Shown here one piece after another: positions 2,541-53,920 of a stretch of DNA of 64,000 nucleotides. Location of the stretch: contig NC_135885.1 of the NCBI RefSeq assembly GCF_964194155.1, positions 52,266,001 through 52,330,000 of the forward strand. The letters run 5' to 3'. Positions within the stretch are counted from its first letter, which is position 1; each line of letters starts with the position of its first letter. Origin of the DNA: Cetorhinus maximus (lineage: Eukaryota). Position numbers and translations under genes: made by a program. Under the pieces are notes generated by a model that saw nothing but the letters and a program-made list of their open reading frames with translations, was not told where the DNA came from and did not search any database.

Positions 2541-4757
2541 CAGAAGTAAGAGACAAATTCAGGTCTGATATTAGGAAATCCTTCTTCACAAAGAGTGACC
2601 AGCACTCTCAGAGTAGCAGGGGCATAAACCCACAGATACTGCAGTAGCGGGGCTTCAGGATGCTCCTGGATGGGTAAATTGGGATGACCGAATGGTTTCT
2701 CTCATTCATAATTATTGTGTGAATGAAATGAAAAGAAACAGCTTTAATTTAAGGCTATGGCAATATGGATGGAAAGGGACAATTCTGATACCTTTATTAT
2801 GAAAGTGCCAGAATTTCATATTTCTTGACCATCGAAGAACTTTGTTTATAACCAAGCCAAAGCATTTTAAAAAACCTAGTGAAGGCCTATGAATCGATAA
2901 ATAAGTTTCAAGTGTTTGATGGCCAGAAAATTTGCTCCTATCTTCAATGACTTCCCACTCCACTTAGAACATAACATTCAATTTGTGCTGATGATCAGGG
3001 ATGTAGTACCTTCTGTACATAATACTGATTTCCATAAAAAAAGAAAAATTTAGCAATTTGCCAAAATGTTTTCCCAAAGGGCAAAATCTCTAGGGATCCA
3101 TTATATTTGTTGATCCATTGATACACTTAGTAATTGCCACATTGAAATAAATCTTTGCTAATCTATTCATATTTGGATTGTAGGTGCTGAAATATGTTAA
3201 ATCTGCCACTGTCATCTTCTATTTTCATATCAAACTCAAACTTGTTGATTTGCACAACTTGCAAATAAGTTGCATCCTGTCTTTGATGACTGCGCTCAAG
3301 TTTGTAAGAAGCTTTAGTAAAACATTTGCCTCATTCGCAATGAACCAGAACATGTTTGTCAAACAAAATTAAAATACATCTATATCTGAGATTTTTTACT
3401 TACTAGTGTGTTAGAATAAAAACTGCTTCAGATGAAGTTGCTTGCCTAGAAATCTAGATTTTAGCAACAATTGCAGAATATACTTTAAAGTTCCTGGTCC
3501 CAAGGTAAGTTATTTTGTTAATTCAGTAGTTTTTTGTGGTTTTCATCACATTCTACCAATGACACTCCTGTAAACATCTTGCTACATTTTGTTGTTTGCT
3601 TCCACTCCCTGATAATATGGTGCTATTTCTATTGATTTAACTCCATACTGTAATATTCACGGTCATTAACTACATCAACAGATCTTTCATTGTCTGAAAT
3701 TCTTCTGCACCACAAACATCGAATACCCTCAAACCCCATGTATCCACTCACCTTCGTTGTGCTTAAATGTAACAAAACACTGAGAATCTGATTCTCTCAT
3801 CTTAAGTACTATCCAACACATAGGATGCACAGTTAGGACAGCTACATTTTGTTTAGTTTAAAATCTTTAGTTGCCCTTCTAACAAAGTTATAAATACAAT
3901 AATTACTATAAATGATGAAAGTTTAAATTTCTTTCAAATATTGCTCACAAAAAACAGAATTTCAAAACAGATTCATGAAATCATTCATCACCCTTTGCCT
4001 AAAAGCATGCTATAATGCATCTGAAAGCCTTGCAAAAATACAACGTAAGAAGTACCTGATGCAGTATCTGAGCCCTTATTATTTTAGGATAAAAATCGAG
4101 TTAATGCCTTTCACCTTTGACGATGCAAGTTTTAAGTCTTTAGTGGTCATGATCTAAAAGGAATGCTAAGGCAGCCTTGGTTTCACAGTTCATTTGAAAA
4201 TAACTCAAAATTGCAACTGCTTGAAAACTTTCAATATCAATCTTCATTTTACCTGGACTGTAAATCTAAATTAGAATTAAAGACTTAGATTAACAGGCTG
4301 ATTATAATATTGCAGATGAAGAAGTACTTTTTATGTGTGGTGCCTTTGAGAAAAAGATCAACTTGCGTACTGGCTGCACATGTCAATCAGAAATGGATTG
4401 AGGAATCAAATCATTGACATAGGAGTTTTGTTAACCCTTTCAAATTATTGGCACCTCCTGTATGTTCTTTTTTTTATTCATTTACATGATGTGGGCTTTG
4501 CTGGCTAGGCCAGCATTTATTGCCCTTAAGGTGATGGTGAGCTGCCTTCTTGAACGACAGCCATGTGGTGTAGGTACACCCACAGTGCTGCTAGGAAGGG
4601 AGTTACAGGATTTTGACCCAGCGACAGTGAAGGAACGGCGATATATTTCCAAGTCAGGGTGGTGAGTGGCTTGGAGGGGAACTTCCAGGCGGTGGTGTTC
4701 CAATGTGTCTGCTGTCCGTTTCCTTGTAGGTGGCAGTGGTTGTGGGTTTGGAAGATG

Positions 4758-4950
4758 CTCACTGCCTGAAAGGGTGGTAGAGGCAGAAACCCTCATAATA
4801 TTTACAAGTATTTGGATGTGCACTTGAGATGCCATGGCATACAAGGCTATGGGCCTAGCGCTGGAAAATGGGATTAGAATAGTTAGGTACTTGTTTGACC
4901 GGCAAGTCAAAGGGCCTTTTTCTGTGCTGTAGGCCTCTATGACTCTATGA
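4758..4950 (+). mobile_element. CR1 3' fragment nested in the single-ORF LINE
   Basis: ctgcctgaaagggtggtagaggcag... ending in (ctctatga)2, in opposite orientation to the host. Confidence 0.8.
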
Positions 4951-7155
4951 GACTTGATGAGTTTCTGCACTGCATCTTCCAAATGGTAGACTGCTACCAC
5001 TGTGTGTCGGTGGTGGAGGGAGTGAATGTTTGTCGATGTGGTGCCAATCAAGTGGGCTGCTTTGTCCTTGATGGTGTCAAGCTGCCTGAGTGTTGTTGGA
5101 GCTGCACTCCAAGTGCAGGCAAGTGGAGAGTATTCTGTCATACTCCTGACCTGTGCCTTGTAGGTGGTGGATAGGCTTTGGGGAGTAAGGTGGTGAGTTA
5201 CTCGTCGCAGGATTCCTAGTCTATGACCTGCTTTTGTAGCCAGTGTTTATATGGCTAGCCCAGTTCACTTTCTGGTCGACGGTAACCCCCGGGATGCTGA
5301 TAGTGGCGGATTCAGCAATGGTAATGCCATTGAATGTCATGGGGAGATGGTTAGATTCTCTCTTGTTGGAGGTGGTCATTGCTTGGCACTTGAGTGGTGC
5401 AAATGTTACTTGCCACATGTCAGCCAAAGCCTGGATATTGTCCAAGTCTTGCTGCATTTGGACATGGACTGCTTCAGCATCTGAGGAGTCATGAATGGTG
5501 CTAAACATTGTGCAATCATCAGCAAACATCCCCGCTTCTGACCTAGTGATGGAAGGAAGGTCACTGATGAAGCAGCTGAAGATGGTTGGGCCTAGGACAC
5601 TACCCTCAGGAACTCTTATAGTGATGTCCTGGAACTGAGATGATTGACCTCCAACAATCACGGCCACCTTCCTTTGTGCCAGGTATGATTCCAACCAGTG
5701 CAGAGTATTCCCCCTGATTTCCATTGACTCCAGTTTTGCTAGGGCTCCTTGATGCCACACTTGGTCAAATGCTGCCTTGATGTCAAGGGCAGTCACTCTC
5801 ACCTCACCTTGGGAGTTCAGTTCTTTTGTCCATGTTTGAACCAAGGCTTTAATGAGGTCAGGAGCTGAGTGACCCTGGCGGAACCTAAACCGAGCATCAG
5901 TGAGCAGGTTATTGCGAAGCAAGTGCCACTTGACAGCACTGTTGATGACCCCCTTCCATCACTTTCCTGATGATCGAGAGTAGACTGATGGAGTGGTAAT
6001 TGGCCGGGTTGGATTTGTCCTGCTTTTTGTGTACAGGACATACCTGGGCAATTTTCCACATCGCCAGGTAGATGCCAGTGTGGTAGCTGAACTGGAACAG
6101 CTTGGCTAGTGACGTGGCAAGTTCTGGAGCACAAATCTTCAGCACTACTGCAGGAATATTGTCAGGGTGTGTAGCCTTTGCAATATCCAGTGTTCAGCCA
6201 TTTCTTGATATCACATGGAGTGAATCGAATTGGCCATAGACTGGCATCTGTGTTACTGGGGGGCTCTGAAGGAGGCCGAGATGGATCATCCACTCGGCAC
6301 TTCTGGCTGAAGATTGTTGCGAGTGCCTCAGCCTTATTTTTTGCACTAATGTGCTGGGCTCCTCCTTCATTGAGGATGGGGATATTTGTGGAGCCTCCTC
6401 CTCCAGCCTGTTGTTTAACTGTCTACCACCATTCATAACTGGATATGGCAGGATGCAGAGCTTAGATCTGATCCACTGGTCATGGAATCGCTTAGCTCTG
6501 TCGATCGCTTGCTGCTTATGCTGTCTGGCACACAATTAGTCCTGTGTTGCAGCTTCACCAGGTTGATACCTCATTTTTAAGGATGCCTGGTTCTGCTCCT
6601 GCCATGCCCTCCTGCACTCTTCATTGAACCAGGGTTGATCTCTTGGCTTGGTGGGAATGGTGGAGGGGGGACATGCGGGGCCATGAAGTTGCACATTGTG
6701 GTCAAGTACAATTCTGCTGCTGCTGATGGCCCACAGCGCCTCATGGATACCCAGTCTTGAGTTACTATATCTGTTCAAAAATCTATCCCATTTAGCACGG
6801 TGGTAGTGCCACACAACACGACGCAGGGTATCCTCAACGTGAAGACGGGACTTCATCTCCACAAGGACTGTGCGATGGTCATCCTACCAATATTGTCATG
6901 GACAAATGCATCTGCAGCAGGCAGGTCGGTGAGGATGAGGTCAAGTATGATCTTCCCTCTTGTTGGTTTCCTTACCACCTGCCACAGACCCAGTCTAGTA
7001 GCTATGTCCTTTAGGACTCAGCAAGCTCAGTGGTAGTGCTATTGAGCCACTCTTGGTGATGGACATTGAAGTCCCCCACCCAGAGTACATTCTGCACCCT
7101 TGCCACCCTCAGTGCTTCCTCCAAGTGGTGTTCAACATGGAGGAGTACTGATTCA

Positions 7156-7523
7156 GAGGGAGGCGATGGCGTAGTGGTCTTGTCGCTGGGCTAATAATCC
7201 AAAGACCCAGGGTAATGCTCTGGGGACCGGGGTTTGAATCCCACGACTGGCAGATGGTGGATTTGAATTCAATTTTAAAAATCTGGAATTAAAAGTCTAA
7301 TGATGACCATGAAGCCATTGTTGATTGTTGTAAAAACCCATCTGATTCATTAATGTCCTTTTGGGGAGGAAATCTGCTGTCCTTACCTGGTCTGGCCTAC
7401 ATATGACTCCAGACGCACAGCAATGTTGTTGGCTGCCCTCTGAACAAGGGCAATTAGGGATGGGCAATAAATGCTGGCCTAGCCAGTGATGCCCACATCT
7501 CATGAATGAATTTTTTTTAAAAA
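7156..7523 (+). mobile_element. tRNA-derived SINE (full length) nested antisense in its related LINE
   Basis: A-box TGGCGTAGTGG 7167-7177, B-box GGTTTGAATCC 7231-7241. Body matches the LINE 5' region (7969-8230) and tail matches the LINE 3' end. Host sequence appears to rejoin across it (gattca|tcagctg). Confidence 0.9.
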
Positions 7524-10500
7524 TCAGCTGAGGGAGAGCAGTATGTGGTAATCAACAGGATGGTTCCTTGCCCATGTTTGACCTGATGCCATGAGACTTC
7601 ATGGGGTCCACAGTTGATGTTGAGGACTTCCCCAGGCAACTCCCTCCCAACTCTATACCACTGTGCCGCCATCTCTGCTGGGTCTGTCCTGCTGGTGGGA
7701 CAGGACATACCCAGGGGTAGTAGTGATGTCTAGGACATTATCTGAGTATGACTTTGTCAAGCTGTTGCTTGACTAATCTATGGGATAGCTCTCCCAATTT
7801 TGGCACAAGCCCCTGGACATTAATAAGGAGGACTTTGCAGGGTTGATAGGGCTGGGTTTGCCGTTGTTGTTTCTGGTGCTTAGATTGATACCAGGTGGTC
7901 CATCTGGTTTCATTCCTTTTTACTGACTTTTTAGCGGTTTGATACAATAGAGTGGCTTGCTGCGTCATTTCAGAGGACATTTAAGAGTCAACCACATTGC
8001 TGTGGATCTGGAGTCACATGTAGGTCAGACCAGATGAGGACGTCAGATTTCCTTCCTTAAAGGTCATTAGTGAACCAGATGGGTTTTTATGACAATCGGC
8101 AACGGTTTCATGGTCATCATTAAACTTTTAATTCCAGATTTTTTTTTTATTGAATTCAGGTCCCCAGAACATTACCCTGGATCTCTGGATTACCAGTTCA
8201 GTGACAATACCACTACGCCACTACCCCCTCTCTTCATTCTATATAAATTGAGATTGCAGCTTGCTAAACTCCTTAATGATCTGGAACTTGAAAAGTATTG
8301 ATGTGATGGATAGTCATAAATCATCAAATATGTTAAATACCCAATATTCCCATTTTACAGCAACGCTTTTGGTTCATCCCAGCCTGCAGTCTGTTGTTGT
8401 CCAATTGCATCTTTAAGGTCACTATCAGTAAATTAACAAAAGCAAAAAAAAAGAGCCAAGCCATCTAGTTCCTCTTTGGATTGAGAACACAAACAGCTGT
8501 AATCATTGGCACATACGAGCAAGTCCGCAGCAAGGTTCTAATCAGGGTCAGGATAACACCTCTATTTTGCACGCAGAAAGTTTGAAGTCCTTCACAACTT
8601 GGCCAAATGCTTTTGCAGCATCCAATGTAGTTTTTGGTTTTAGAAGTGATGTTCTTTTCTATTAGAATGAATGCAGCTGGTTTGGAGTGTGTCTGGTGAT
8701 GAAAGATTTTTTACAGAATCATAGAAGGCGTAGCACAAAAGCAGCCATTCAGCTCATGTCTGCCAGTGTGATTTTCTTCCATTGAGCCACCTAGCAAAAT
8801 CCGGTCTCCAACTCATCACTATGTCAGTATTTATCTTCCCAAACAACTGCATCAAAATGTGAGTTCAGAAGTTATTTGGGGAAACTGGTCTGAAAGAATT
8901 AAAATTTCAGATTTGAACAGTGGATTCACTTTAAACCACTACAATTGAAAACAAACTTCCTAATTTACGAGTGTTCTGTATATTTCTGTGTCCAATTTAC
9001 AACTGCTTTAATTAATTAATAACATTTGGCATTGGTAGACTCCATTTAATTTCTTAGCTTTGATAGGCCACAATTAAATACATTCCTCTAATTAAATTAG
9101 TAAAGTCAACAATATTGTGGGACTTGATTGCAGTCAGTAAGGTTTCAAGGTCTCCATGATGGGCCAGTAACCCATAGACAATAGAGACTTGCAATGAGAC
9201 TGAAGACAGAGATAAGAGGAGTCCAAAAACCATTCTGTACCTGGAAATGTTTGTTCCAACTCCATGGAACGATACATGATTGGGTCAATGTTGCTACAAT
9301 TTTGTTTTGGGCTATAACTATAGGGAACTTGGTTCCTTCTCAGTTTAGAGGTTCAAGCTGAGGGTGCAACAGGTCAACTTCTGCTCAAATCGACTATAAA
9401 CTGATTATAATGATGAGCCAGCCAGGAACTGATTAACAGCTATTGGTATAATTGGAGTGGTTGGCTATTTAGCCAGCTAAGGAAAGGAACCTTGGGAAAT
9501 ATAGGACATTGTGACCTACCAGCAGTGTTCCCTCTAAGCTGCACAGTCCAGAAGTTCCTACACAGTCCGTGAATAAGTCAGCCCTTTTAAGTTGAAACAT
9601 GCAATTCAGAATGATTTAGTGTCATTTTGATTGGTCCAAGTAGAGTCATCAAAAGGCGACAGGTATGAAACAAGGTTGAAACCTTGAAGCACTGAAGCTG
9701 ATGGTATATGCTGCAAGCTTCTCAGAGCCATTACAGCTTCTCTTCCAAGAAAAATTAGGTTTAAGTGGAAGAATTACTGAGTGAAAGAAAATGTAAAGGT
9801 TCCTGGAATTTCAGTTTGTGTGGAAATGTGTGTCAATGTTTAAGAAGTTACAGCAATTCCTTTTGTTTGAAATGCTCTCTTTTAAAGAAAATGTGTCTGC
9901 TGTTGTCCTCTGGTGTCCCCTGCACCCTCTATTCTGTTCACAGGGCTAAAAGCCATTCAACCCTTTGTAGTTTTGTCTTTGATTAAAATGTTTAAAATGA
10001 TTCCAGAATCCATGTCCTTTCAACAGTGTTCACTGTTTTAAGTTGTTAATTGTACGAACCACTGCTCCTCTTTTTAATGAATTTATAAACTCCACTTCAA
10101 CAATGATTTGGTCTAACCACCCTTTATGTAAAGGAATTTTATGAGCCTCAACATAAATTCTATTTTTTTTAAATTATCTTAAATTACTGATGCCATCATC
10201 CACCTTATTACAACCCAGGTCACCTCAGCTATAGTTTGCAGCATTCTCATCTACAGTTACAAGGCCTCAACTTCTAATATCGCTTTTAATAAGTGAAACC
10301 CCCTCATTCTGTAATGACTAAATAAAAAAGAAGAGTTCAGCAGGGAAATCATTGCCCAGGGGCATTCCCAGAAACCATTATTCTCATTGAGTGTCATCAA
10401 TTAGAATTCAGAAGTCCAAAAGCTGGATTCTCCCTGACCTGTGGACGGAGGGAAATTGCCACTCAGCAGCCATCTGTTTCCTCAGTGTGACTTGGGTCTC

Positions 10501-11677: not shown

Positions 11678-12826
11678 CGATCCCCCTTTTTCCAATAATT
11701 TATAATTTTTAAAAAATATATTTTTCTTTTCCCACCTATTTTTAAATTTATTTCCATCTATTGTTTTATCTCCACCTTTTAGCCCATTTCGATCCCTTCC
11801 CCCCCACCCCACCCCCACCAGGGCCATCTGCCACTTAATATCACCACCGTCAACACCCCTTTGTCCTTTTATCTATGACATCTTTGGCAATCTCTTCTTT
11901 GCCTCCAAAAATTCAGCAGGTCTGACAGCTTCTGTGGAGAGGGATACAGTTAACATTTCGAGTCCGAATGACTCTTCATCTGAACTAAGGAAAATAGAAA
12001 AGAGGTGAAATATAAGCTGGTTTAAGTGGGGATGGGGGGGGAGAGACAGGTAGAGCTGGAAAGAAGGCCAGTGATAGGTGGAGATTGCCAAAAGATGTCA
12101 TAGACAAAAGGACAAAGAGGTGTTGACGGTGGTGATATTAGCTAAGAAATGTGCTAATGGAGACATTAAGGGTGGAAAGCAGGGCAAGCAAGGGACAGAT
12201 AGCCCTAGTGGGGGTGGGGGGTCGAAATAGGCTTCCATCCATTGTTTTATCTCTACCTTTTAGCCTATTTCGAACCCCCCCACCCCACCCCCACTAGGGC
12301 TATCTGTCCCTTGCTTGCCCTGCTTTCCACCCTTAATGTCCCCATTAGCACATTTCTTAGCTAATATCACCACCGTCAACACCTCTTTGTCCTTTTGTCT
12401 ATGACATCTTTTGGCAATCTCCACCTATCACTGGCCCTCTATTCAGCTCTACTTGTCCCACCCCCCCCTTAAACCAGCTTATATTTCACCTCTTTTCTAT
12501 TTTTCCTTAGTTCTGATGAAGAGTCATTCGGACTCGAAACGTTAACTGTATCCCTCTCCGCAGATGCTGTCAGACCTGCTGAGTTTTTCCAGGTATTTTT
12601 GTTTTTGTTCTAGATTTCCAGCATCCGCAGTATTTTACTTTTATCTTCTTTGCCTCCACCTATCACTGGCCCTCTATCCAGCTCTACCTGTCCCACCCAC
12701 CTCTACCAGCTTATACTATTTCCTTAGTTCTGATGAAGAGTCATATGGACTCAAAACGTCAACTGTGTTCCTCTCTGCAGATGCTGTCAGACCTGCTGAG
12801 TTTTTCCAGCTATTTTTGTTTTTGTT
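11678..12826. mobile_element. Nested Penelope 3'UTR/pseudo-LTR complex: inverted-repeat insert (11908-12643) inside an older copy
   Basis: Homologous to the 3' UTR of the Penelope at 30543-30990. 15-bp TSD tcttctttgcctcca at 11893-11907 and 12644-12658. Inverted arms ~11910-12233 and ~12262-12590. Confidence 0.88.
12509..12547 (+). ncRNA. Minimal type I hammerhead ribozyme motif in Penelope pLTR
   Basis: AGUU-CUGAUGA-A-GAGUC-auucg-GACUC-GAAAC-GUU^AACU: stem I, conserved core, stem II hairpin and a palindromic minimal stem III. Such motifs are established for Penelope-like elements. Confidence 0.75.
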
Positions 12827-18740: not shown

Positions 18741-19660
18741 TTTTTTATTCCTTCATGGGGTGTGAAGTGGTGAACCACCTTCTTGAACACTAGTCCACTT
18801 GGTGTAGGTACACTCGCAGTGCTGTCAGGGAGGGAGTTCCAGGATTTTGATCCAGCGACAGTGAAGGAATGATGATATAGTTCCAGGTCAGCATGGTGTG
18901 GGGCTTGGAGGAAATCTTTCAGGTAGCATTGTTCCCATTCATCTGCTGCCCTTGCCCTAGGTGGCAGAAGTTGCAGATTTTGAAGATGCTGTCAAATGAG
19001 GCCTGGCGAGTTCCTGCAGTGCATCTTGTATCTGGTACACCCTGCTGCCATTATGTATCAGTGGTGTAGGAAGTGAATGTTTAAGGTGGTGGATGGGATG
19101 CCAATAAAGCAAACTGCTTTATCCTGGATGGTGTCAAGCTCTCGAGTGTTGTTGGAGCTGCACTCATGCAGGCAAGTGCAGAGTAAATGCACACTCCTGA
19201 CTTCTGAGTTGTAGTTGGGGGACAGGCTTTGGGGAGTCAGGTGAGTTGCTCACCCCAGAATTCTCAGCCCTGACCTGCTCTTAGCTACAGTATTTTTATG
19301 ACTGGTTCAGTTAAGTTTCTTGTCAATGATAACCCCCAGGATGCTGATGGTGCAGGATTCAGCAATAGTAATTCCATCAAATGTCAAGCGCAGATGATTA
19401 AATTCTCTCTTGTTGGAGATAGTCATTGCCTAGCACTTGTGTGCTGCCAATGTTACTTGCCGCTTATCAGCCCTAACTGGAATGTTGTCCAGGTCTTGGG
19501 ACACAGACTGCTCAGTGTCTGAGGAATCACAAATGGTATGAACACTGCAGTCAATAGAACATCCCCACTTCTGACCTTATGATGGAGGAAAGGGCATTGA
19601 TGAAGCAGCAGAAAACAGTTGGGCCAGGGACACTACCCTGAGGAACTCCTGCAGTAGTGT
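18741..19660 (-). mobile_element. 5'-truncated copy of the single-ORF LINE family
   Basis: Colinear similarity to 4470-5625 (e.g. ggattttga.ccagcgacagtgaaggaa; ggacactaccctgaggaactc). Confidence 0.88.
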
Positions 19661-20344: not shown

Positions 20345-23300
20345 ATACATTGAGTGGTACATTTGCAGAAGCTATGACATGTAGCTTCTTTGGATGAGAG
20401 TAGGGGCTGCAGGCTGGAAGAGCTGACTGATCATGGCACTGTGGTACAGTAAGCCATTCAAGTGGGGGGAGCAAAAAGGAACGCAGTGGTAGTAGGGGAC
20501 AATATAGTGAGGGGAATTGAAACTGTTCTCTGCAGCAAAGCAAGAGTTCCTGCCCAGTGCCAGGGTTCAGGACATTTGCTCAGAGAGGAACTTAAAGTGG
20601 GAGGTTGAGAATCTAGTTGTCATGGTCCATGTAAGTACCAACAACATTGACAGGACGAAAAAGGAGGTTCTGCATAGACAGTATGAGAAGCTAGGCACCT
20701 AATTAAGCAGAACCTCAAAGGTAACCATCCCTGAATTATTACCTGAGCCATGTGCAAATTGGCACAGGGCAAATAAGATTAGAGAAATGAAGGCGTGGCT
20801 CAAAGACTGGCATGGGAGAAGTGGGTTCCGGTTTGTGGGGCACTGGCACCAGTATTGCGAAAGCGGGATCTGTACCGTTGGGACGGTTTACACCTGAACC
20901 ATCCTGGGGCTGATGGCCTCGCAAGCCGCATAACTAGAGAAGTAGAGAGGGTTTAAACTGAATAGTGGGGGCAAGGGATCAAATTTGGGAAGATGTGGTA
21001 AACCAAAGAGAAGAGACCAGGCAAGAAAGGAACATGTTAATATGGAGAACAGAATGTGATAGGAAGGAATAGAGAGTACTAATCTAAAAGTAAAACAGCA
21101 GTCAAGGCTAAAGGTTACAGAAATAATAAAAGGAAAAAAACTAAAGACTCTGTATCTGAATGCACACAGCATTTGAAACAAAACAGGTGAGCTGATAGCA
21201 CAGAAATAAATAAGTACGATTTGAAAGCCATTAGAGACATAGCTGCAGGATGACATAGATTGGAACCCGAATATTGAAAAGTACATGGCATTTAGGAAGG
21301 TCAGGAAGCCAGGAAAAAGTGGAGGGGTGGCTCTGTTAATTAATGGTGGTATTAGCACATTAGAGAGGGATGACTTATGCTCAGGAAACTGGGATGTCAA
21401 AGCAGTTTGGGTTAAAATGAGAAATGATAAAGGCAAGAAGTCACCTGTGGGAGTGGTGTACAGGCCCCCTAATTGTGATGACACATGGGAGAGAGTATAA
21501 AGGAAGAGACAACGGTAGCTTGTCAAAGATGCAGCAATAATCATGGGGGATTTTAATCTACATACAGACTGGAAAAATCTGATGGGCAAAGGTAGCCCTG
21601 ATGGGGAGTTCACAGAATGCTTTCGGGATAGTTTCTTAGAACAGCACATTCTGGAGCCAACCAGAGAGCAGGCTATATTAGAACTGGTCTTGCGCAGTGA
21701 GATAGGATTAATTGATAACCTCGTAGTGAAGGCACCCCTAGGTAGCAGTGACATAGTATGATTGAACTTTACATTCAGTTTGAGGGGAAGAAGAGTGGGT
21801 CCAAGACTAGTATTTTAAACTCCAATAGGGGCAATTATGAGGCCATGAGAGCATAGCTAGCTAAAGTGAACTGGCTGGCAAATGAGGTTAAGGGATAGGT
21901 CAATAGAAGTTCAGTGGCAAACATTTAAAGGGATATTTCAGAATATACAGAATAGATATATTGCAATGAGAAAGAAAAATTCCAAGGGGAGGACCCACCA
22001 TCCATGGTTCACTAAAAACAGTATCAAACTTAAAGGAAAAGCATATAATTGCGCAAAGACAGGTGGCAGATCAGAAGATTGGACATAACAAAGAAAAGCA
22101 AATAATGACAAAAAGATTAATAAGGAAGGAAAAATTAGAGTTCGAGAGAAAGCTAGCTAGAAATATAAAGGAAGATAGTAAGAGGTATTTAAATAAGAAA
22201 AGAGTTAACAAAGTGAGTGTTGGTCCTGTAGAAAGTGAGTCTAGGGAATTAATAATGGAAAATAAGGAGATGGCAGATGAATTGACCAAGTATTTTGCAT
22301 TCACTGTAAAGGATACAAGTTACATCCCAGAAATAGCTGTAAATCAGGAAATTGAAGGGCAAGGCACTCAGGAAATTACAATCGCCAGGCAAGTGGTACT
22401 TAGAAAACAGCTGCAGGCTGGGTCCTGATGGACTTTATCCTAGGGTCTTAAAAGAAATGGCTAATGAGACGCACTGGTTTTAATTTTCCAGAATTCCGAG
22501 ATTCTGGGAAGGTTCCATTAGATTGGAAAATAGCGAATATAACTCCTTTATTCAAAGAGGGAGGGAGACAGAAAGCAGGAAACTATAGCAGAGCACTTGG
22601 AAAAATTCAAGGCAATCAGACAAAGTCAACATAGTCATAGGGGTTAACAGCACAGAAAAGGGCCCTTCGGCCCATCAAATCTGCGCCGGTCAAACAAGTT
22701 TTGTGAAAGGGAAATCATGTTTAACCAATTTATTGGAGTTCTTTGAAGGAGCCACGTGTGCTGTGGATAAAGGGGAACCGGTGGGTATACTGTACTTGGA
22801 TTTCCAGTAGGCATTTGATAAGGTGCCACATCAAAGGTTATTGCGGAAATTAAAAGCTCGTGGTGTAGGGGGGAACATACTGGCGTGGAGAGAAGATTGG
22901 CTAGCTAACAGGAAACAGAGTTGGCATAAATGGGTCTTTTTCTGGTTGACAGGATGTAATGAGTGGTGTGCCACAGAGATCAGTGCTGAGGCCTCAACCT
23001 TTTACAATTTGTATAAATGACTTGGATGAAGGAACTGAAGGTATGGTTGCTAAATTTGCTGATGACACAAAGATAGGTAGGAATGTAAGTTGTGAAGAGG
23101 ACATAAGGAAGCTACAAAGGGACATAGATAGCTCAAGTGCATTGGCAAAAATCTGACAAATGGAGTATAATGTGGGCAAATGTGAAATTGTCCACTTTGG
23201 CAGGAAGAATAAAAAAGGAGCATAATATCTAAATGGTGAGAGATTGCAGAGCTCAGAGATTCAAAGGATCTGGGTGTCCTACTGCATGAATCACATAAGG

Positions 23301-23667
23301 CTAGTATGCAGGTGCAGCAAGTAATTAGGAAAGCTAATAGAATGTTATTGTTTATTGAGGGGAATGGAATACAAAAGTAAGAAGGTTATGCTTCAGTTGT
23401 ACAGGGTGATACCACATCTGGAGTACTGTGTACAATATTGGTCTCTTTATTTAAGAAAGGATGTAAGTGCATTGGAAGCAGGTCAGAGAAGGTTTAACTA
23501 GACTAACAACAGGAATGGGCGGATTGTCTTAGCAGAAAATTGGACAGGCTAGGCTTGAATCCACTGGAATTTAGTAGAGTAAGAGGCGAGTTTATTGAAA
23601 CCTTTAAGATCCTGAGGGGTCTTGACAGGGTGAATGTGGAGAGGATGTTTCCTCTTGTAGGAGAATT
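20345..23667 (+). mobile_element. Long decayed CR1 LINE: ORF1 SGNH/GDSL-esterase end + ORF2 APE-RT; 3' tail missing
   Basis: AVVVGDNIVRGI, VHVSTNNI and DGLHLN (esterase); YLNAHSI, GGVALL, VVYRPP, MGDFNLH, GVPQRSVLRP, KFADDTKIG, HLEYCVQYW. Confidence 0.93.
22633..22697 (-). mobile_element. Short inverted CR1 tail inserted in the long CR1
   Basis: cagcacagaaaagggcccttcggcccatc is a reversed CR1 tail splitting the host QSQH|GFVKG motif. Confidence 0.7.
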
Positions 23668-31552: not shown

Positions 31553-31619
31553 ATCTTCACCATTATGTTTGTGCAACATGACAACAGGCACAACTGGCAA
31601 TTCAAGGGTTTCTGCTCAC

Positions 31620-31835
31620 ACCTCCACATCCAATTTCCACTTTAAGTCACACACCATCCTACAGTGGCATACCTCATTGTTCCTTCATTGCTGTTAGGTA
31701 TGGAGTTCTAGGATTTTGACCCAACAGCATTTTGGGAGTAGCTGCACTCCACTTAGATTATAGCAGTTCACTAAGGTGCCCCACCACCACCTTAAGAGCA
31801 ACAAGGAGTGGGCAATTGCTGACAATGCTCATAAA
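31620..31835 (+). mobile_element. Old 3' end of the single-ORF LINE family
   Basis: aagtcacacaccatcct...ttccttcattg...caccaccaccttaagagcaa..gggcaat matches the family tail. Confidence 0.6.
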
Positions 31836-32847: not shown

Positions 32848-34528
32848 TGTTAGGAAATAGAGATAGTTTAGGTAAGTTATATTGTAGGTGTTAGGAGTGA
32901 GTTTTAGCTTTAATGTTTAAGTTTGATTTGTATTTCTGTATCTGTGTGTTAAGAAGAGGTCAAATTGAGTTTTAACTTCACTTTAAATGGTGCCTGCATT
33001 TCAAATGAGAGTTTTACGACTGTTGCAGCTAAGTGAAACAAACAATAGTAGAGAAACTGGGCTGTTGCCTAGCAATAGGGGTCCAGAGGGGCAGATCCCT
33101 CCCACAGACAACAGAGGAAACTAGAAACAGCAGTTTGATTTGGAAGCTGTTTGAGTTCAGTTGGTTTTCAAAGTAGCTGCAAGGAGAGACTGGAGCAAAG
33201 GAGACAGATAGCCAGTCTCAAGCTAAAGAAAAGACCCCAAAACCCAGGAGAGTGGAACAGGAGAAAGTCCCAAGACAACGTTCTAGACAAATGAAAGGGC
33301 AGGAACTAAGGAAAGGGCAGGAACTTGGTAAAGGTCCTGTTAAGTGAAGTTAAGAGTGAGGGCCAAGAGAGAAAGACTCCAAGCTTTAGATTTAAAAAGA
33401 CAAAAGCTGCAGAAAGCAGATTTAAAGCGAGAACAGCTTGCAAGAGGCCAGAAAGTCCAAAGAGATGGCTGAAGGACTGTAACTCTTTGCTATGGGCATG
33501 TGAAGCAGTGGTGTACTGTTGACAGCTGAGTTGGTGAGAAAGAGTGCGGAAGACAGCCTGAATGCATGTGGTGACCCAGGGAAGAGGGAAACCAGAAGGA
33601 GAGCTCAAAACCCTGGAGGTGAACCCTTGCAAAAAGCATCTGAAAGAAAGTGATGGTTTGGGAGAAGATTCCAAGGAGAGTTCTTGGAGATTGGAAACCC
33701 TCGTGTGAAAGACGGAGTTCAGTGAGACTGATTGGCTCACGGTGTGACAAGTGTCCAGGGGGGGAGGGGGGAGTTGAGGAAAGATCCATAGCATTTGGTT
33801 GAGGTGACATCTGTCACTTGGTTTCAGAGTGTGGTATGCCTGACTACAGGTCACCAATTGGTTTATATGGACTCTGTACTTACTGTGAACATTACAGTAT
33901 AAGATAGTTTTTGTAACTTGTGCTATCTTTACAAATCTGTATACACCTTGGTATATATCTTTTTTATTTGTTCATGGGATGTGGGCATCACTGGCTAGGC
34001 CAGCATTTATTGCCCATCCCTAATTGCCTTTGTTCAGAGGATAGTTAAGAGTCAACCACATTGCTGAGAGTCTGGAGTCACATGTAGGCCAGACCAGGTA
34101 AGGACGGCAGATTTCCTTCCCTAAAGGTCATTAGCGAACCAAATGGGTTTTTATGACAATCAACAATGGTTTCATGGTCATCATTAGTTCCAGATTTTTA
34201 CTAAATTCAAATTTCACCATCTGCTGTGGTGGGATTCAAACCCAGGTTCCCAGAGCATTAGCCTGGGTCTCTGGAATACTAGTCCAGTGACAATACCACT
34301 ATGCCATCGCCTCCCCTATAGTTTTGGGTGAAAGAGTATTGTAATCTAGTTCATTTTTTCTTGTTGAATAAATGTTTTATTCTTTTGTTAAAAGTTCATC
34401 AGTTGACTCCTGTTCAATAGCTAGTCTCCATGCATCTAAACAAATAAATAAAAATTAGGATCTATCAAGCTGGGTTTCACCTTGGGATCAGGCTTGTCCA
34501 ATGGTAACGTCAGCTAGTGATCATAACA
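32848..34528 (+). mobile_element. Putative solo LTR (Gypsy-like, ~1.3 kb net) carrying a SINE insertion
   Basis: TGTTA...TAACA termini and AATAAA signals near 34367 and 34443. The TSD is imperfect (atcag/atag). Confidence 0.6.
33960..34316 (-). mobile_element. Second full-length copy of the tRNA-derived SINE
   Basis: Minus strand ggggaggcgatggcatagtgg (A box), gggtttgaatccc (B box), same body and tail as 7156-7523. Confidence 0.9.
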
Positions 34529-36177: not shown

Positions 36178-37408
36178 ATGGATGGATTTGTTAAGAGAAG
36201 GTTGTGTCTGACTAATTTGATTGAATTTTTTGAGGAAGTAACAAGGAGGATTGATGAGGATAGTGCAGTTGATGTGGTCTACATGGATTTTAGCAAGCCT
36301 TTTGACAAGGTTCCACATGGTAGACTGGTTAAAGATATAAAAGCCCAAGGGATCCAGGGGAATATAGCAAGCTGGATACAAAATTAGCACGGTGGCAGAA
36401 AACAAAGGGTAATTGGGGTAATTGTTGATGGGTATTTTTGTGACTGGATGACTGTTTCCAGCAGGGTTCCGCAGGGCTCAGTGCTAGGTCCTCTACTTTT
36501 TGTGGTATATATAAATGATTTGGACGTAAATGGACGACACAAAAATTGGCCACGTGGTTAATAGCTCTAGACTGCAGGATGGGCAGAAAAGTGGCAAATG
36601 AACTCAACCCAGAGAAGTGTGAGGTGATGCATTTGGGGAGGTCAAACAAGGCAAGGGAATAGACAATAAAGGGGAGGATAGTGAAAGAAATAGAGGAAAT
36701 GAGGGACCTTGGAGTGAATGTCCACAGATCCCTGAAGATAGCAGGATAGGTCGATAAGGTGGCTGAGAAGGCATACGGAATCCTTTCATTTAGTAGCCAA
36801 GGCACAGAATACAAGAGCAGGGAGATTATGCTGGAACTAAAACAAACATTAGTTAGGCCACAACTTGAGGACTATGTGCAGTTCTGGTCATCTCATTACA
36901 GAAATGATGTAAGTGCACTAGAGAGGGTACAGAGGAGATTTATGAGGATGTTGCTAGGTCCAGATAATTACAGCTATGAGGAAAGATTGGATAGGTTGTT
37001 CTCCTTGCAACAGAGGAGACTGAGGGGAGATTTGTTTGAAATGTACAAAATTGAGAGGGGCCTGGATAGCGTGGATGGGAAGGGCCTATTTACTTTAGCA
37101 GGGAGGTCAATGACATGGGGCATAGATTTAAAGTGACTGAAAGAAGTTTTAGAGGGGAGATGAGGAAAATATTTTTTATCCAGAGGGGTGTCGGGATCTG
37201 GAACCCTCTGCCTGAAAGGGTAATAGAGGCAGAAACTCAACTCATTTGAAACGTGTCTGGATATGCACCTGAAGTGCTATAACCTGCAGGGCTACGGACC
37301 AAATGCTGGAAACTGGGATTAGGCTGGGTAGTACATTTTCTGCCGGCACAGACATGATAGACCAAGTGGCCTCTTTCTGTGATGTAAACTTCCTATGATT
37401 CTGTATGA
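36178..37408 (+). mobile_element. CR1 RT-to-tail fragment
   Basis: CLTNLIEFFEEVT..VDVVYMDFSKPFDKVPH; VRPQLEDYVQFWS; tail ctatgattct. Confidence 0.92.
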
Positions 37409-38625: not shown

Positions 38626-39119
38626 TTAGCGATAGAGAACTGTTATAAACAGTAACTCAAAACAATTCAGAGTTTGATGGTTACTGGTTATATATTGGTT
38701 ACTTTAATAGCGAATGGAGTATTTAAGTTATTAAAAAGATAATGACTCTGATTTTGGTCAAAGAATATTCTAGCCATTCAATTCTTTGCACACTATAGGC
38801 TTTTCCACATTCAAGATGTGCACCAAAATCAAATTATTTAAATTCCGAGATAGCTTTACCTCCCAAATATATATACATTACACACCAACCTTTAGCCCAT
38901 TCAACAAAATTGAAAACATGTTGCAGCTTTTAGAAGAACTCTGATAATTAGTTTGCACGAAAATCAAACCTGCAAAATAACTACACTGATGGGCAGCAGT
39001 ATTGATGCATCTGGCAATTCTCAATACTGCCAGTCATTTCTTCCTTTCTCCAGACTACATATAAATAAATATCTAAAAAAAAGTGCTCCACTCCATTTGT
39101 AATTCCTCAGATAATAAGG

Positions 39120-40160
39120 AATCCTGCATGCAGCAAGGTCTAGACAACATACAGGCTTGGACTGAGTGAGAAATTTATTCAGGTATACAAATGCCAGGTA
39201 ATGACCATCTCCAATGAGACAAAGTCAATCCATCTCCCTTTGACATTCAATGGTATTACCATCACCAAGTCCCCACCATCAACATCCTGAGGGTCACCCT
39301 TGAACAGAAACTTAACTGAATCAGTTATGAAAATGTTGTGGCTACTAGAGCCAGCTCAGAGACTGGGTATTCTACAGCAAGTGATTCACCTCCTACTCCC
39401 AAAAGCCTGTCTACAAGGCACAAGTGAGAATGTGATGGAATATTCTCCACTTGCCTGGATGAGTGCAGCTGCAATACCACTCAAAAAGTTCAACACCTTC
39501 CAGGTCCTTCTGTGACTCTATGAAACATGCACTCATTCCCTCATTGGCACAACGGAGCTGCAGCATGTATTGTCTACGAGCAGTGCAACAACTCACCAAA
39601 GTTTCTTCACCTCCACCTGGAAGAACAGGGACAACAGATACATGGGAACACTAACACCTCTATGTTCCCCTCCCAAGTCACACACCATTCAGACTTGAAA
39701 ATATAATCACCATTCCTTCATCATCGTTGTGTTAAAATTATGAAATTACTGACCCAAAAGTATTGTGGGAGCTCCTTCACCATATGGACTGCAGCAGTTC
39801 AAGAACAAGGTCCACTACCACTATATGTTCTCATGGGTAACTAGGGGTGGGCAATGTATTGATCCTTATGTCTGTGACATCTTTTGATTATCTGCTCTTA
39901 TTACTGCTTGCTTATCTCCACAATCACCACACCCTCAACTTCTCTCTCCCCCCGCCCCACCACCTTAAACCAGCTTATATTTCACCTTTCTCCTAACTAT
40001 GCTTCAGTTCTGCCGAAGGGTTGTGAAGACTCGAAACGTTAACTGATTTCTTCTCCACCGATGCTGCCAGACCTGCTGAGTTTTTCCAGGTAATTCTGTT
40101 TTTGTTGTGGGCAATAAATGTTAGCTTTGTCAGCAAAACCCATATTCCAAGCATGTTTAT
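39120..40160 (+). mobile_element. 3' third of the single-ORF LINE family, with a Penelope pLTR inserted in its tail
   Basis: QRLGILQQVIHLL, VMEYSPLAWMSAA. The tail is split by insert 39856-40106 with TSD gtgggcaat (39847-39855, 40107-40115). Confidence 0.85.
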
Positions 40161-53360: not shown

Positions 53361-53392
53361 AACTTCCTACATACGGACAAGGACTACTTCAA

Positions 53393-53920
53393 TATCTGAG
53401 GAGTTATGATTGGTACTGAACATTGTGCAATCATCAGCAAACATCTCCACATCTCTCCTTATATTGGAGGGAAGGTCGCCAATAAAGCAGCTGAAAATGA
53501 TTGAGCCTCGCCAATAAAGCAGCTGAATATGATTGAGCCTCGGACACTACTAAGAGGAAATCGTTCAGCAATGTCCTGGGCTGAGATGATTGGCCTCTAA
53601 CAACATAACCATCTTCCTTTGTGCAAAGTAAGACTCCAACCACTGGAGAGTTTTCCCCGATTCCCACTGACTTCAATTTTACTAGAACTCCTTGATGCCA
53701 CTCTCAAATGCTTCCATGATGTCAAGGATAGTCACTCTCGACTCAAGAATTCAGTTCTTTTGTCCATGTTTGGACCAAGGCTGTGATAAGGTCTAGAACC
53801 AAGTGGCCCTTGCAGAAGTCAAACTGAGCATCAGTGAGCTGATTATTGGCAAGTGACGCTTAATAGCACTGTCAATGATACCTTCCATTGTTTTGCTGAT
53901 GATTGAGAATAGGCTGATTG
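53393..53920 (-). mobile_element. Internal RT fragment of the single-ORF LINE family
   Basis: Colinear with 5478-5990 (tgtgcaatcatcagcaaacatc = MFADDCT on the minus strand). Confidence 0.85.
53476..53539. repeat. 32-bp tandem duplication
   Basis: tcgccaataaagcagctgaa(a/t)atgattgagcc x2. Confidence 0.9.

Follow-up and report, generated by a model that had tools for sequence, protein, structure and literature searches.

How can a LINE with a tRNA-derived head express its protein? This question is raised by a decayed element on the minus strand (8230-4468) of a 64,000-nucleotide stretch of the shark Cetorhinus maximus (contig NC_135885.1, positions 52,266,001 to 52,330,000), which as a whole is the window analysed here. 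In the usual division, LINEs are Pol II units, whereas SINEs are non-coding Pol III units. In this family, a tRNA-type promoter, the lack of T-runs and the usual lack of a usable start codon together point to likely Pol III transcription, which would call for an unusual, possibly virus-like, RNA knot for translation. The best explanation as a whole, to which we assign a probability of about 0.4, is a tRNA-headed LINE that would be transcribed by Pol III and translated from the knot without cap or AUG.

The locus and its family

The locus is a dead copy of a LINE family that is probably of CR1-Zenon type. It is full-length but decayed, with 83-90% identity to the family majority, numerous frameshifts and two nested inserts. 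The preliminary description had given its length as ~3.2 kb and noted the absence of ORF1; with both inserts removed the element measures 3,207 nt, and it indeed has no ORF1. The 5' end is formed by the head (8151..8230), which contains the A box already recognised in that description (TGGCGTAGTGG, 8220-8210), an anticodon-like arm, and a long variable-arm hairpin. The leader (7976..8150) is common to the SINE body and has several upstream ATGs, none of which opens the majority ORF. It is followed by a hairpin (7948..7975), an in-frame GCT (7933..7935), and an Arg/Lys-rich N-terminal extension (7834..7932) as in relatives. The APE endonuclease domain (6830..7833, Pfam Exo_endo_phos_2) is split by a SINE insert, and the reverse transcriptase domain occupies 5221..5958 (Pfam RVT_1, E 2.7e-24). 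A short 3' UTR and an A tail (4468..4518), common to the SINE, complete the element. All these features are on the minus strand.

The two inserts are on the plus strand, antisense to the LINE. One (7156..7522) is a SINE, in which the LINE head and leader are joined to the LINE 3' end; it has no target-site duplication. The other (4760..4948) is the 3' tail of another repeat, presumably a CR1-type tail, which is present also at 1857-1983 and 37208-37402. In addition, the window contains a second SINE copy with both the A and B boxes intact (33960..34316, minus strand) and an older copy of the LINE family (18767-19655). The match of the locus head and body to the SINEs at 7156 and 33960, reported previously, was found again. 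The local SINE corresponds to the first ~294 or ~315 nt of the LINE joined to its last ~70 nt, the middle being deleted, and the SINE and LINE have the first 294 nt in common. It resembles the SIDEs, in that it is an internally deleted LINE, as Persaeus is derived from Zenon. It also resembles the tRNA-derived SINEs (SINE2) in having a head with A and B boxes; unlike in these, the head in the shark family also tops a protein-coding element. According to Kojima (2018), SINEs cannot encode protein, and only the 5' regions of RTE and Vingi have been found in SINE bodies (PMC5786205). A MetaSINE identity of the body was considered and rejected: the 66-nt Meta domain was not found after the head in a by-eye comparison with bivalve MetaSINEs (PMC4824008 supplement).

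The family is a 3.29-kb single-ORF APE-RT LINE, with at least 4,821 exact copies of one leader-ORF junction in the shark genome. Its copies are dispersed and have a common 3' end with an A tail and variable 5' truncation. No target-site duplication adjoining both ends was found in 25 full-length copies; elements of the CR1/L2 group commonly lack such duplications. The majority sequence of 61 copies has one open frame of 975 codons. The shared non-CpG variants are 40 synonymous and 29 non-synonymous (dN/dS about 0.22), which shows purifying selection on the ORF during its evolution. Among the 80 loci examined, none was fully intact, and the longest family ORFs were of 549 and 524 codons.

Start of the reading frame

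It had been described that the head runs straight into the ATG of the APE frame at 7968. As a working start this ATG did not hold: it is in frame solely via mutations private to the locus copy. The commonest form in the family is ATG-GCC-TAG (exact in 36 of 92 copies), and the T at the first position of this stop was found in 66 of 86. A TAA three codons ahead of the GCT, present in 26 of 92 copies, is the only stop shared among 69 variants; in this subfamily the frame is open for 967 codons counted from the GCT. In most cases, then, no AUG precedes the endonuclease in the ORF, and the stop two codons past the ATG in most copies sharpens the translation question posed by the preliminary description. 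In the majority ORF, Met first occurs in frame at codon 291, and AAG and AGG are the only near-cognate codons in frame between codons 7 and 47. A start without AUG between codons 7 and 43 seems moderately probable.

The hairpin at 7948..7975 suggests how such a start might be set. It has a 7-nt loop (7963-7957) with AGC in loop positions 3-5, and the in-frame GCT, which is complementary to this AGC, lies 12 nt downstream as a candidate P-site or first codon. ATG 7968 lies within the hairpin, as does the TAG two codons on in most copies; the inner stem of the hairpin is mutated in the locus copy. Pairing of the loop AGC with the in-frame GCU would set the frame like pseudoknot I (PKI) of the dicistrovirus intergenic IRESs. 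A similar arrangement is seen in L161, the closest relative with DNA, an invertebrate sequence (37% identity) without a tRNA head: a 12-bp hairpin with an unrelated stem and a 7-nt loop carries AGC in positions 3-5, followed by an 11-nt linker and an in-frame GCT ACA. Dinucleotide shuffles yielded any such hairpin-codon match in 2.4% and 4.8% and a GCT match in 0.07% each, the AGC:GCT knot being one that rests on these two sequences and was defined after looking at them. A hairpin-codon match of any kind was found in 2 of 25 relatives, and one of these was weak.

The likeness in form to the dicistrovirus intergenic (type 6) IRES extends to the anticodon-like hairpin loop, the 11-12 nt linker and the complementary in-frame codon of PKI, as well as to the absence of AUG, a leader of about 200-230 nt and a GCU at the start region. 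The viral PKI helix is longer than 3-4 pairs, whereas the shark knot has 3-4 loop pairs only. Furthermore, the shark GCU is the paired codon and not the next one; in the viral IRESs, decoding usually begins with a GCU that lies beside the knot, outside it (PMC12221177). Rfam gave no IRES match for the shark or L161 leader and no ribozyme match to the heads or leaders, and no consistent model of a PKII/PKIII ribosome-binding domain with L1.1, SLIV and SLV was obtained from the helix lists. It should be mentioned that L161 has an in-frame Met five residues ahead of its first endonuclease motif, and that the proteins of other close relatives start with Met. An apparent restriction of stem decay to copies with an open AUG frame (stem intact in 1 of 11 versus 47 of 63 copies) was set aside as support, because these copies share ancestry and the allele in question is frequent among SINE-like copies as well (14 of 20). 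We put forward tentatively, at somewhat below an even chance, that the AGC:GCU knot sets the translation start. More tentative still is an extended proposal. Since the knot is present in an invertebrate relative without the tRNA head, it might be older than the promoter and might have allowed the polymerase switch; the family would then be a Pol III LINE with a factor-independent, dicistrovirus-like knot, and the SINE body would be a leader remnant.

A start of the Pol III transcript at ATG 7968, used directly by the lineages whose frame is open and with the TAG and TAA lineages expressed by stop-codon readthrough or moved in trans, is rather unlikely. In its favour, the family conserves this ATG in frame, an open frame starts from it in 12 of the copies with an ungapped segment, and CAA, which makes for leaky termination as in tobacco mosaic virus, comes after each of the two stops. 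GAG or AAG replaces TAG in a minority of copies (17 of 86), 11 of these 17 being open from the ATG through codon 6, and the GAG copies are younger on average (median 4.9% versus 8.3% from the majority). However, this reading has to accommodate the predominance of TAG and the copies that bear TAG and TAA together (17 of 86). The oldest subfamily, which has TAG, differs from the rest in 20 synonymous and 11 non-synonymous codons and has no shared ORF stop or frameshift, and this fits autonomy. Moreover, at least eight ATGs lie upstream, so that an uncapped RNA would still need internal entry. Of the GAG copies whose stem is altered, 20 were sampled; 6 run on into the ORF, where 5 meet a stop after 8 codons and therefore have neither an open AUG nor a perfect stem.

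It is also unlikely that a non-AUG or frameshift start of the Pol III transcript is set in another way, with the AGC hairpin arising by chance or serving another role, although the shark and L161 leaders have no significant overall similarity (score 24, shuffle mean 22.5). In one variant, translation would begin at the out-of-frame ATG 7913, a conserved codon whose short frame overlaps the N-terminal extension, and a -1 frameshift would follow. No canonical slippery heptamer was seen by eye, however. At codon 35, most of the shared variants are silent in the APE frame and every one alters the residue in the other, and the basic extension of the relatives is in the APE frame.

The tRNA-derived head and the depletion of oligo-T

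The tRNA head is part of the replicating unit and a family trait. Queries free of the head retrieved copies reaching it in 19 of 30, 15 of 30 and 17 of 60 cases, with the B-box motif in 10, 11 and 8 of these, respectively. The head-less copies are 5'-truncated and start at scattered internal points. Independent insertions thus share the head; a different 5' UTR or an ORF1, either of which would have made the locus a one-off chimera, was looked for and not found, and no alternative 5' end occurred among 120 copies. Three variants in the head or leader are linked to variants of the ORF at distances of up to 2 kb (p<0.005 for 11 of 15 pairs), which argues that the fusion is not a one-off chimera.

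The A and B boxes sit at tRNA-like spacing from the LINE 5' end. In the subfamily majorities with good sampling, neither box is damaged, and both match the SINE boxes exactly. The loss of the B box from the locus copy, as described before, is due to a deletion of 30-36 nt; the box is intact in many other family copies. In one subfamily majority, a gap of one base proved to reflect varied deletions within a G run. The head aligns locally to a host tRNA-Leu(AAG) gene with a score of 43, against a maximum of 34 in 2,000 shuffles, Leu genes alone having been compared. The heads were not recognised as tRNA by ARAGORN or Rfam, and none of the 25 relatives with DNA had a B box in the 500 nt preceding the endonuclease.

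The sense strand is poor in T. Outside the inserts, the locus copy has a single run of four or more T (6781-6777) against 15 A4+ runs, as had been stated, and the view that this run arose after insertion was upheld: the family sequence there is TTTCG, and the run is explained by CpG decay with a 1-nt insertion. CpG decay has produced T4 at this site in 36 of 105 copies, a share in keeping with the other CpG sites (median 25%, maximum 42%). The CR1 at 20345-23667, previously noted as rich in sense T4, has 8 runs. The family majority has no sense T4 in 3.29 kb. T4 runs at the expected frequency would have spoken against the preliminary description, and this check came out in its favour. Absence of T4 on its own reaches only P=0.085 against synonymous-codon shuffles; the strong signal is that of T3, with 4 runs in the ORF against about 12.7-12.8 expected (0 of 5,000 shuffles). 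TTA is absent among the 88 Leu codons of the majority ORF; the shark CR1 majority has 7 T4, 36 T3 and 14 TTA in 900 codons. Compared with 43 related ORFs, the T3 count is the lowest and its z the most negative (-3.4). Oligo-T is avoided beyond the effect of codon usage or host composition.

Judged from these sequence features, Pol III transcription of the family is likely. TFIIIC and TFIIIB would bring Pol III to the head with its internal A and B boxes; since T4 is absent, the polymerase could read through 3.3 kb and would then stop at a T run in the flanking DNA. Through target-primed reverse transcription, the LINE protein would copy both the RNA that encodes it and that of the SINE.

The head might instead be a passenger acquired by 5' switching, with transcription from a Pol II promoter in the leader or by read-through and T-poverty due to other reasons; we consider this quite improbable. 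LINE promoters are thought to be Pol II and are often replaced (PMC2881922; 10.1101/2022.11.04.512097), 2 of the 43 relatives, both without the tRNA head, likewise have no T4, and the B box is gone from about one third of heads in one sample. The query of that sample itself had no B box, however, so that the loss rate is biased, and the end points of the deletions varied among copies. A passenger head also accords poorly with A and B boxes intact in the subfamily majorities and identical to those of the SINE, with the clustering of 5' ends at the first G run of the head, and with a T3 depletion stronger than in any other of the 44 ORFs. If template switching had joined a SINE to a truncated LINE, once or repeatedly, as in the U6-L1 chimeras, this might explain the first 294 nt common to both, and some LINE copies may have SINE-derived 5' parts, but the at least 4,821 exact copies of one junction, the single 5' end and the linkage of head variants to distant ORF variants make such a chimera highly improbable.

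Relatives and biological meaning

In a quick IQ-TREE analysis of RT sequences, the shark RT groups with lepidopteran, lancelet and crab proteins in a 40-row clade (SH-aLRT 89) apart from the shark CR1; the tree contains no named Zenon sequence, and the lepidopteran member P0078 is annotated as hypothetical. The endonuclease motifs resemble those of Zenon-1_Hmel when compared by eye (PMC6740152 figure S3). Zenon of Lepidoptera and bivalves is likewise ~3.3 kb long (PMC6740152 table 1), with one APE-RT ORF, no ORF1, an A tail and internally deleted derivatives. In contrast, Zenon-1_Hmel has an in-frame ATG, whereas the shark family usually has no open AUG; the tRNA head and the absence of sense T4 also set the shark family apart, and the lepidopteran Zenon 5' ends have no tRNA homology or Pol III promoter (PMC6740152). 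A "CR1-Zenon like LINE" has been counted in the whale shark genome (10.1101/443036). R2 and L1Tc also have uncapped RNA with putative IRES-like translation (PMC6765202), but there an HDV-like ribozyme releases the RNA from Pol I or polycistronic co-transcripts, whereas the shark element has a promoter-like head.

A sister Zenon family in the same genome was sought and not supported: 30 loci examined of 150 matches to the L161 endonuclease, and 20 examined matches to the copy at 18767-19655, all belonged to the tRNA-headed family. Four scans of viral contigs found no relatives, and prokaryote genome contigs gave two distant eukaryote-like fragments, which are uninformative. The stretch is covered with 80-99% identity by short contigs from X19 and X20, two runs labelled coral metagenome and metagenome RNA, and this material looks elasmobranch; run X21 gave 4 reads, in the leader only, and run X22 none. 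Being contigs from mixed samples, the RNA runs give neither transcript start, strand nor covariation information.

A tRNA-headed LINE family was not found in the literature searched, Repbase and Dfam lying outside that search. IRESs of this kind in non-LTR elements were raised merely as a possibility in a 2013 commentary (PMC3894237), and no instance of the proposed factorless, AUG-free initiation in such elements was found in the literature searched. A family with a SINE head on its own ORF and thousands of full-length copies breaks the LINE/SINE division. It also offers a direct route from LINE to SINE, in which the middle is deleted and the promoter is already present. If Pol III transcription holds true, the family would offer a naturally occurring protein-coding Pol III RNA of 3 kb; a working knot would provide an example in a cellular genome of factorless, AUG-free initiation.

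Anatomy of the family and its tRNA head

Two inserts in antisense orientation interrupt the LINE at 4468-8230 on the minus strand: a SINE at 7156-7522 and, at 4760-4948, a repeat tail. Without them the LINE measures 3,207 nt. Endonuclease and reverse transcriptase (RT) pieces were recognised in it with Pfam, and its closest named proteins are from sharks and rays. In agreement with the preliminary description, a deletion has removed the B box, and the A box occupies 8220-8210. Four older copies of the family, 5'-truncated or fragmentary, occupy 18767-19655 (-), 53363-53918 (-), 39093-39855 (+), and 31618-31816 (+), at 67-81% identity to the family majority. An inverted repeat of 186 nt at 12034-12468, 96% complementary with arms 63 nt apart, is made of two repeat copies.

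The family majority is the column majority of 61 copies, each 2.9-14% away from it. This element of ~3.29 kb has a single frame of 975 codons, measured between stops, preceded by a head of ~100 nt and a leader of ~230 nt; behind the frame lies a short 3' UTR with an A tail. Neither an intact copy nor a target-site duplication was found among the copies examined. The 69 shared non-CpG variants of the frame (149 projected copies) comprise 40 synonymous and 29 non-synonymous changes; dN/dS is ~0.22.

The 4.0-Gb genome was searched for copies. A head plus ORF-start query gave 14,235 candidates, of which 40 places were scored; 29 loci besides the window copy align across head, leader, and ORF start, and their flanks are unrelated. 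This query has no B box and therefore favoured B-box-deleted copies. Of 30 loci found with head-free endonuclease DNA, 19 reach the head, eight begin within the leader, and three begin within the ORF; the corresponding numbers for a foreign endonuclease protein (30 loci) are 15, 10, and five, and those for RT or 3' queries (60 loci) are 17, three, and 40. No alternative common 5' end was seen among these loci. An intact B-box motif is present in 10/19, 11/15, and 8/17 of the heads reached, respectively; the fusion of a head with intact B box to the ORF, anticipated from the window copy, thus exists in other copies. Three head/leader sites co-segregate with ORF variants (p<0.005 in 11 of 15 pairs), which means that master elements carried both parts. 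A 19-nt leader-ORF junction specific to the LINE has 4,821 exact genome matches, and its controls have none. The anatomy of tRNA head plus single ORF is real and family-wide.

The SINE majority (30 copies) equals the first 294 nt of the LINE, bar five CpG transitions, followed by its last 70 nt. One SINE junction has 7,485 exact matches (controls, 0); in a second form the junction lies ~20 nt further along. The alignment of the head with a host tRNA-Leu(AAG) gene beats all 2,000 shuffles, chiefly via the T arm; within this comparison, restricted to Leu genes, tRNA-Leu is a candidate parent.

Several side observations should be mentioned. Many heads have lost the B box (window 8156-8150) by recurrent deletions that span a long predicted hairpin and differ in their end points; directly before the start hairpin, short direct repeats flank recurrent 12-nt deletions. 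Six copies of low divergence (L105, L114, L118, L120, L129, L130) have nearly coincident 5' ends inside the ORF (element ~1606-1635), three of them on one unplaced contig; this may reflect a truncation hotspot or segmental duplication. L150 and L159 are near-identical copies that lack the same internal parts of the element (~320-479 and 1131-1200); they probably arose by duplication or form a non-autonomous sub-lineage. In read run X21, from another organism, four of ~10 million reads match only the leader end (L095:594-729) at 90-95%, a hint, too small to count, of a related SINE body outside the present lineage. Predicted host proteins of several sharks (P0001, P0008, P0060, P0061, P0065, P0070, P0073, P0075) contain LINE pieces, by exonisation or as annotation artefacts.

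Classification and oligo-T depletion

In a quick IQ-TREE of 99 RT regions (102 gathered; no named Zenon included), the shark element groups with L161 (its closest relative with DNA), P0079, and one protein each from a lancelet and a crab within a 40-row clade (SH-aLRT 89). The clade includes a lepidopteran protein; shark CR1 and Jockey-like proteins fall outside. The endonuclease motifs of Zenon-1_Hmel, compared by eye, agree with this placement, and tree and motifs together point to CR1-Zenon. This label is already counted in the whale shark genome (10.1101/443036). In the lepidopteran Zenon 5' ends of PMC6740152 dataset S1, several helices are, judged by eye, kept via compensatory changes.

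The window copy has, with inserts removed, one sense-strand run of four or more T (6781-6777) and 15 of four or more A. The T run sits at a CpG-decay site and is post-insertional, as had been proposed. The majority element has no T4 and six T3. Against synonymous-codon shuffles, the majority ORF has no T4 versus 2.1 expected (P=0.085). For T3, the count is four versus 12.8 expected, a value as low being reached in 0 of 5,000 shuffles; TTA codons are absent, and A4 and C4 are at the expected level. The contrast with CR1 was borne out, since a CR1 majority built from 25 copies in this genome has seven T4, 36 T3, and 14 TTA over 900 codons. An ORF of at least 600 codons is present in 43 of the 82 related loci drawn from metagenome and genome contigs; in these 43 the minimum T3 count is 10 and the minimum z is -2.9, compared with -3.4 for the shark LINE, and two of them also have no T4. 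In the 25 relatives with upstream DNA, the 500 nt before the endonuclease start contain no B box. Pol III transcription would predict both the purging of T runs and the gain of A and B boxes, which do not prove it.

Start of translation

In most copies, GCC TAG comes right after the ATG at 7968, previously taken as the ORF start, with T at the first stop position in 66 of 86, and the ATG-GCC-TAG form has 2,846 exact genome matches. A subfamily (26 of 92 copies), marked by linked ORF changes of its own, has an additional TAA at codon 6; its frame is open for 967 codons, counted from codon 9. The earliest in-frame Met of the majority ORF is codon 291, and the only near-cognate codons between codon 7 and Asn 47, which we take to be the first endonuclease motif of the APE domain, are AAG and AGG.

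The ATG and TAG sit within a hairpin (7975-7948, minus strand) whose 7-nt loop carries AGC at positions 3-5, and an in-frame GCT ACA follows 12 nt past the stem (GCT, 7935-7933). L161 is a metagenome contig with 37% identity to the shark element, seven T4, and no tRNA head. Its 12-bp hairpin differs in stem sequence but carries AGC in the identical loop positions; an 11-nt linker follows, and then in-frame GCT ACA, 28 codons upstream of the endonuclease. At L161:440-660, this invertebrate LINE of Zenon type has a structured leader that ends in a very stable hairpin with an anticodon-like loop. In 3,000 shuffles, framed after the pattern had been seen, the generic hairpin-codon shape was matched in 2.4% and 4.8%, and the GCT match in 0.07% each. 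A match of any kind occurs in two of 25 relatives, the second being weak and AT-rich. The geometry resembles pseudoknot I of type 6 IRESs (PMC12221177, PMC10275262). The viral knot usually stops right before GCU, unlike the shark model, in which GCU itself would pair with AGC.

Other observations argue against such a start. No IRES was matched in the shark or L161 leader with Rfam, and no model of upstream IRES-type domains was obtainable. L161 has Met at the endonuclease start, and other relatives begin with Met. UAG-CAA is a leaky stop context. GAG or AAG replaces TAG in 17 of 86 copies, on average younger, and 11 of the 17 are open from the ATG; an AUG start therefore exists in some copies. 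The GAG form has 220 exact genome matches. In a sample of 20, the sequence beyond the leader is SINE-like or unrelated in 14; among the six LINE copies, one is open and five stop after eight codons, so that some copies have neither start route intact. Such copies may have been mobilised in trans or have arisen by SINE/LINE recombination.

In the open literature searched, we found no autonomous LINE with a tRNA head or Pol III transcription, and no account of the 5' end of this family; as far as searched, the anatomy is undescribed, and Repbase, Dfam, or SINEBase may list the family. We class it as a LINE of the CR1-Zenon type that carries a SINE-type promoter. We propose, tentatively and with a probability of about 0.35-0.4, that the family combined Pol III transcription with knot-driven translation. 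If true together, they would constitute a new mode of LINE expression.
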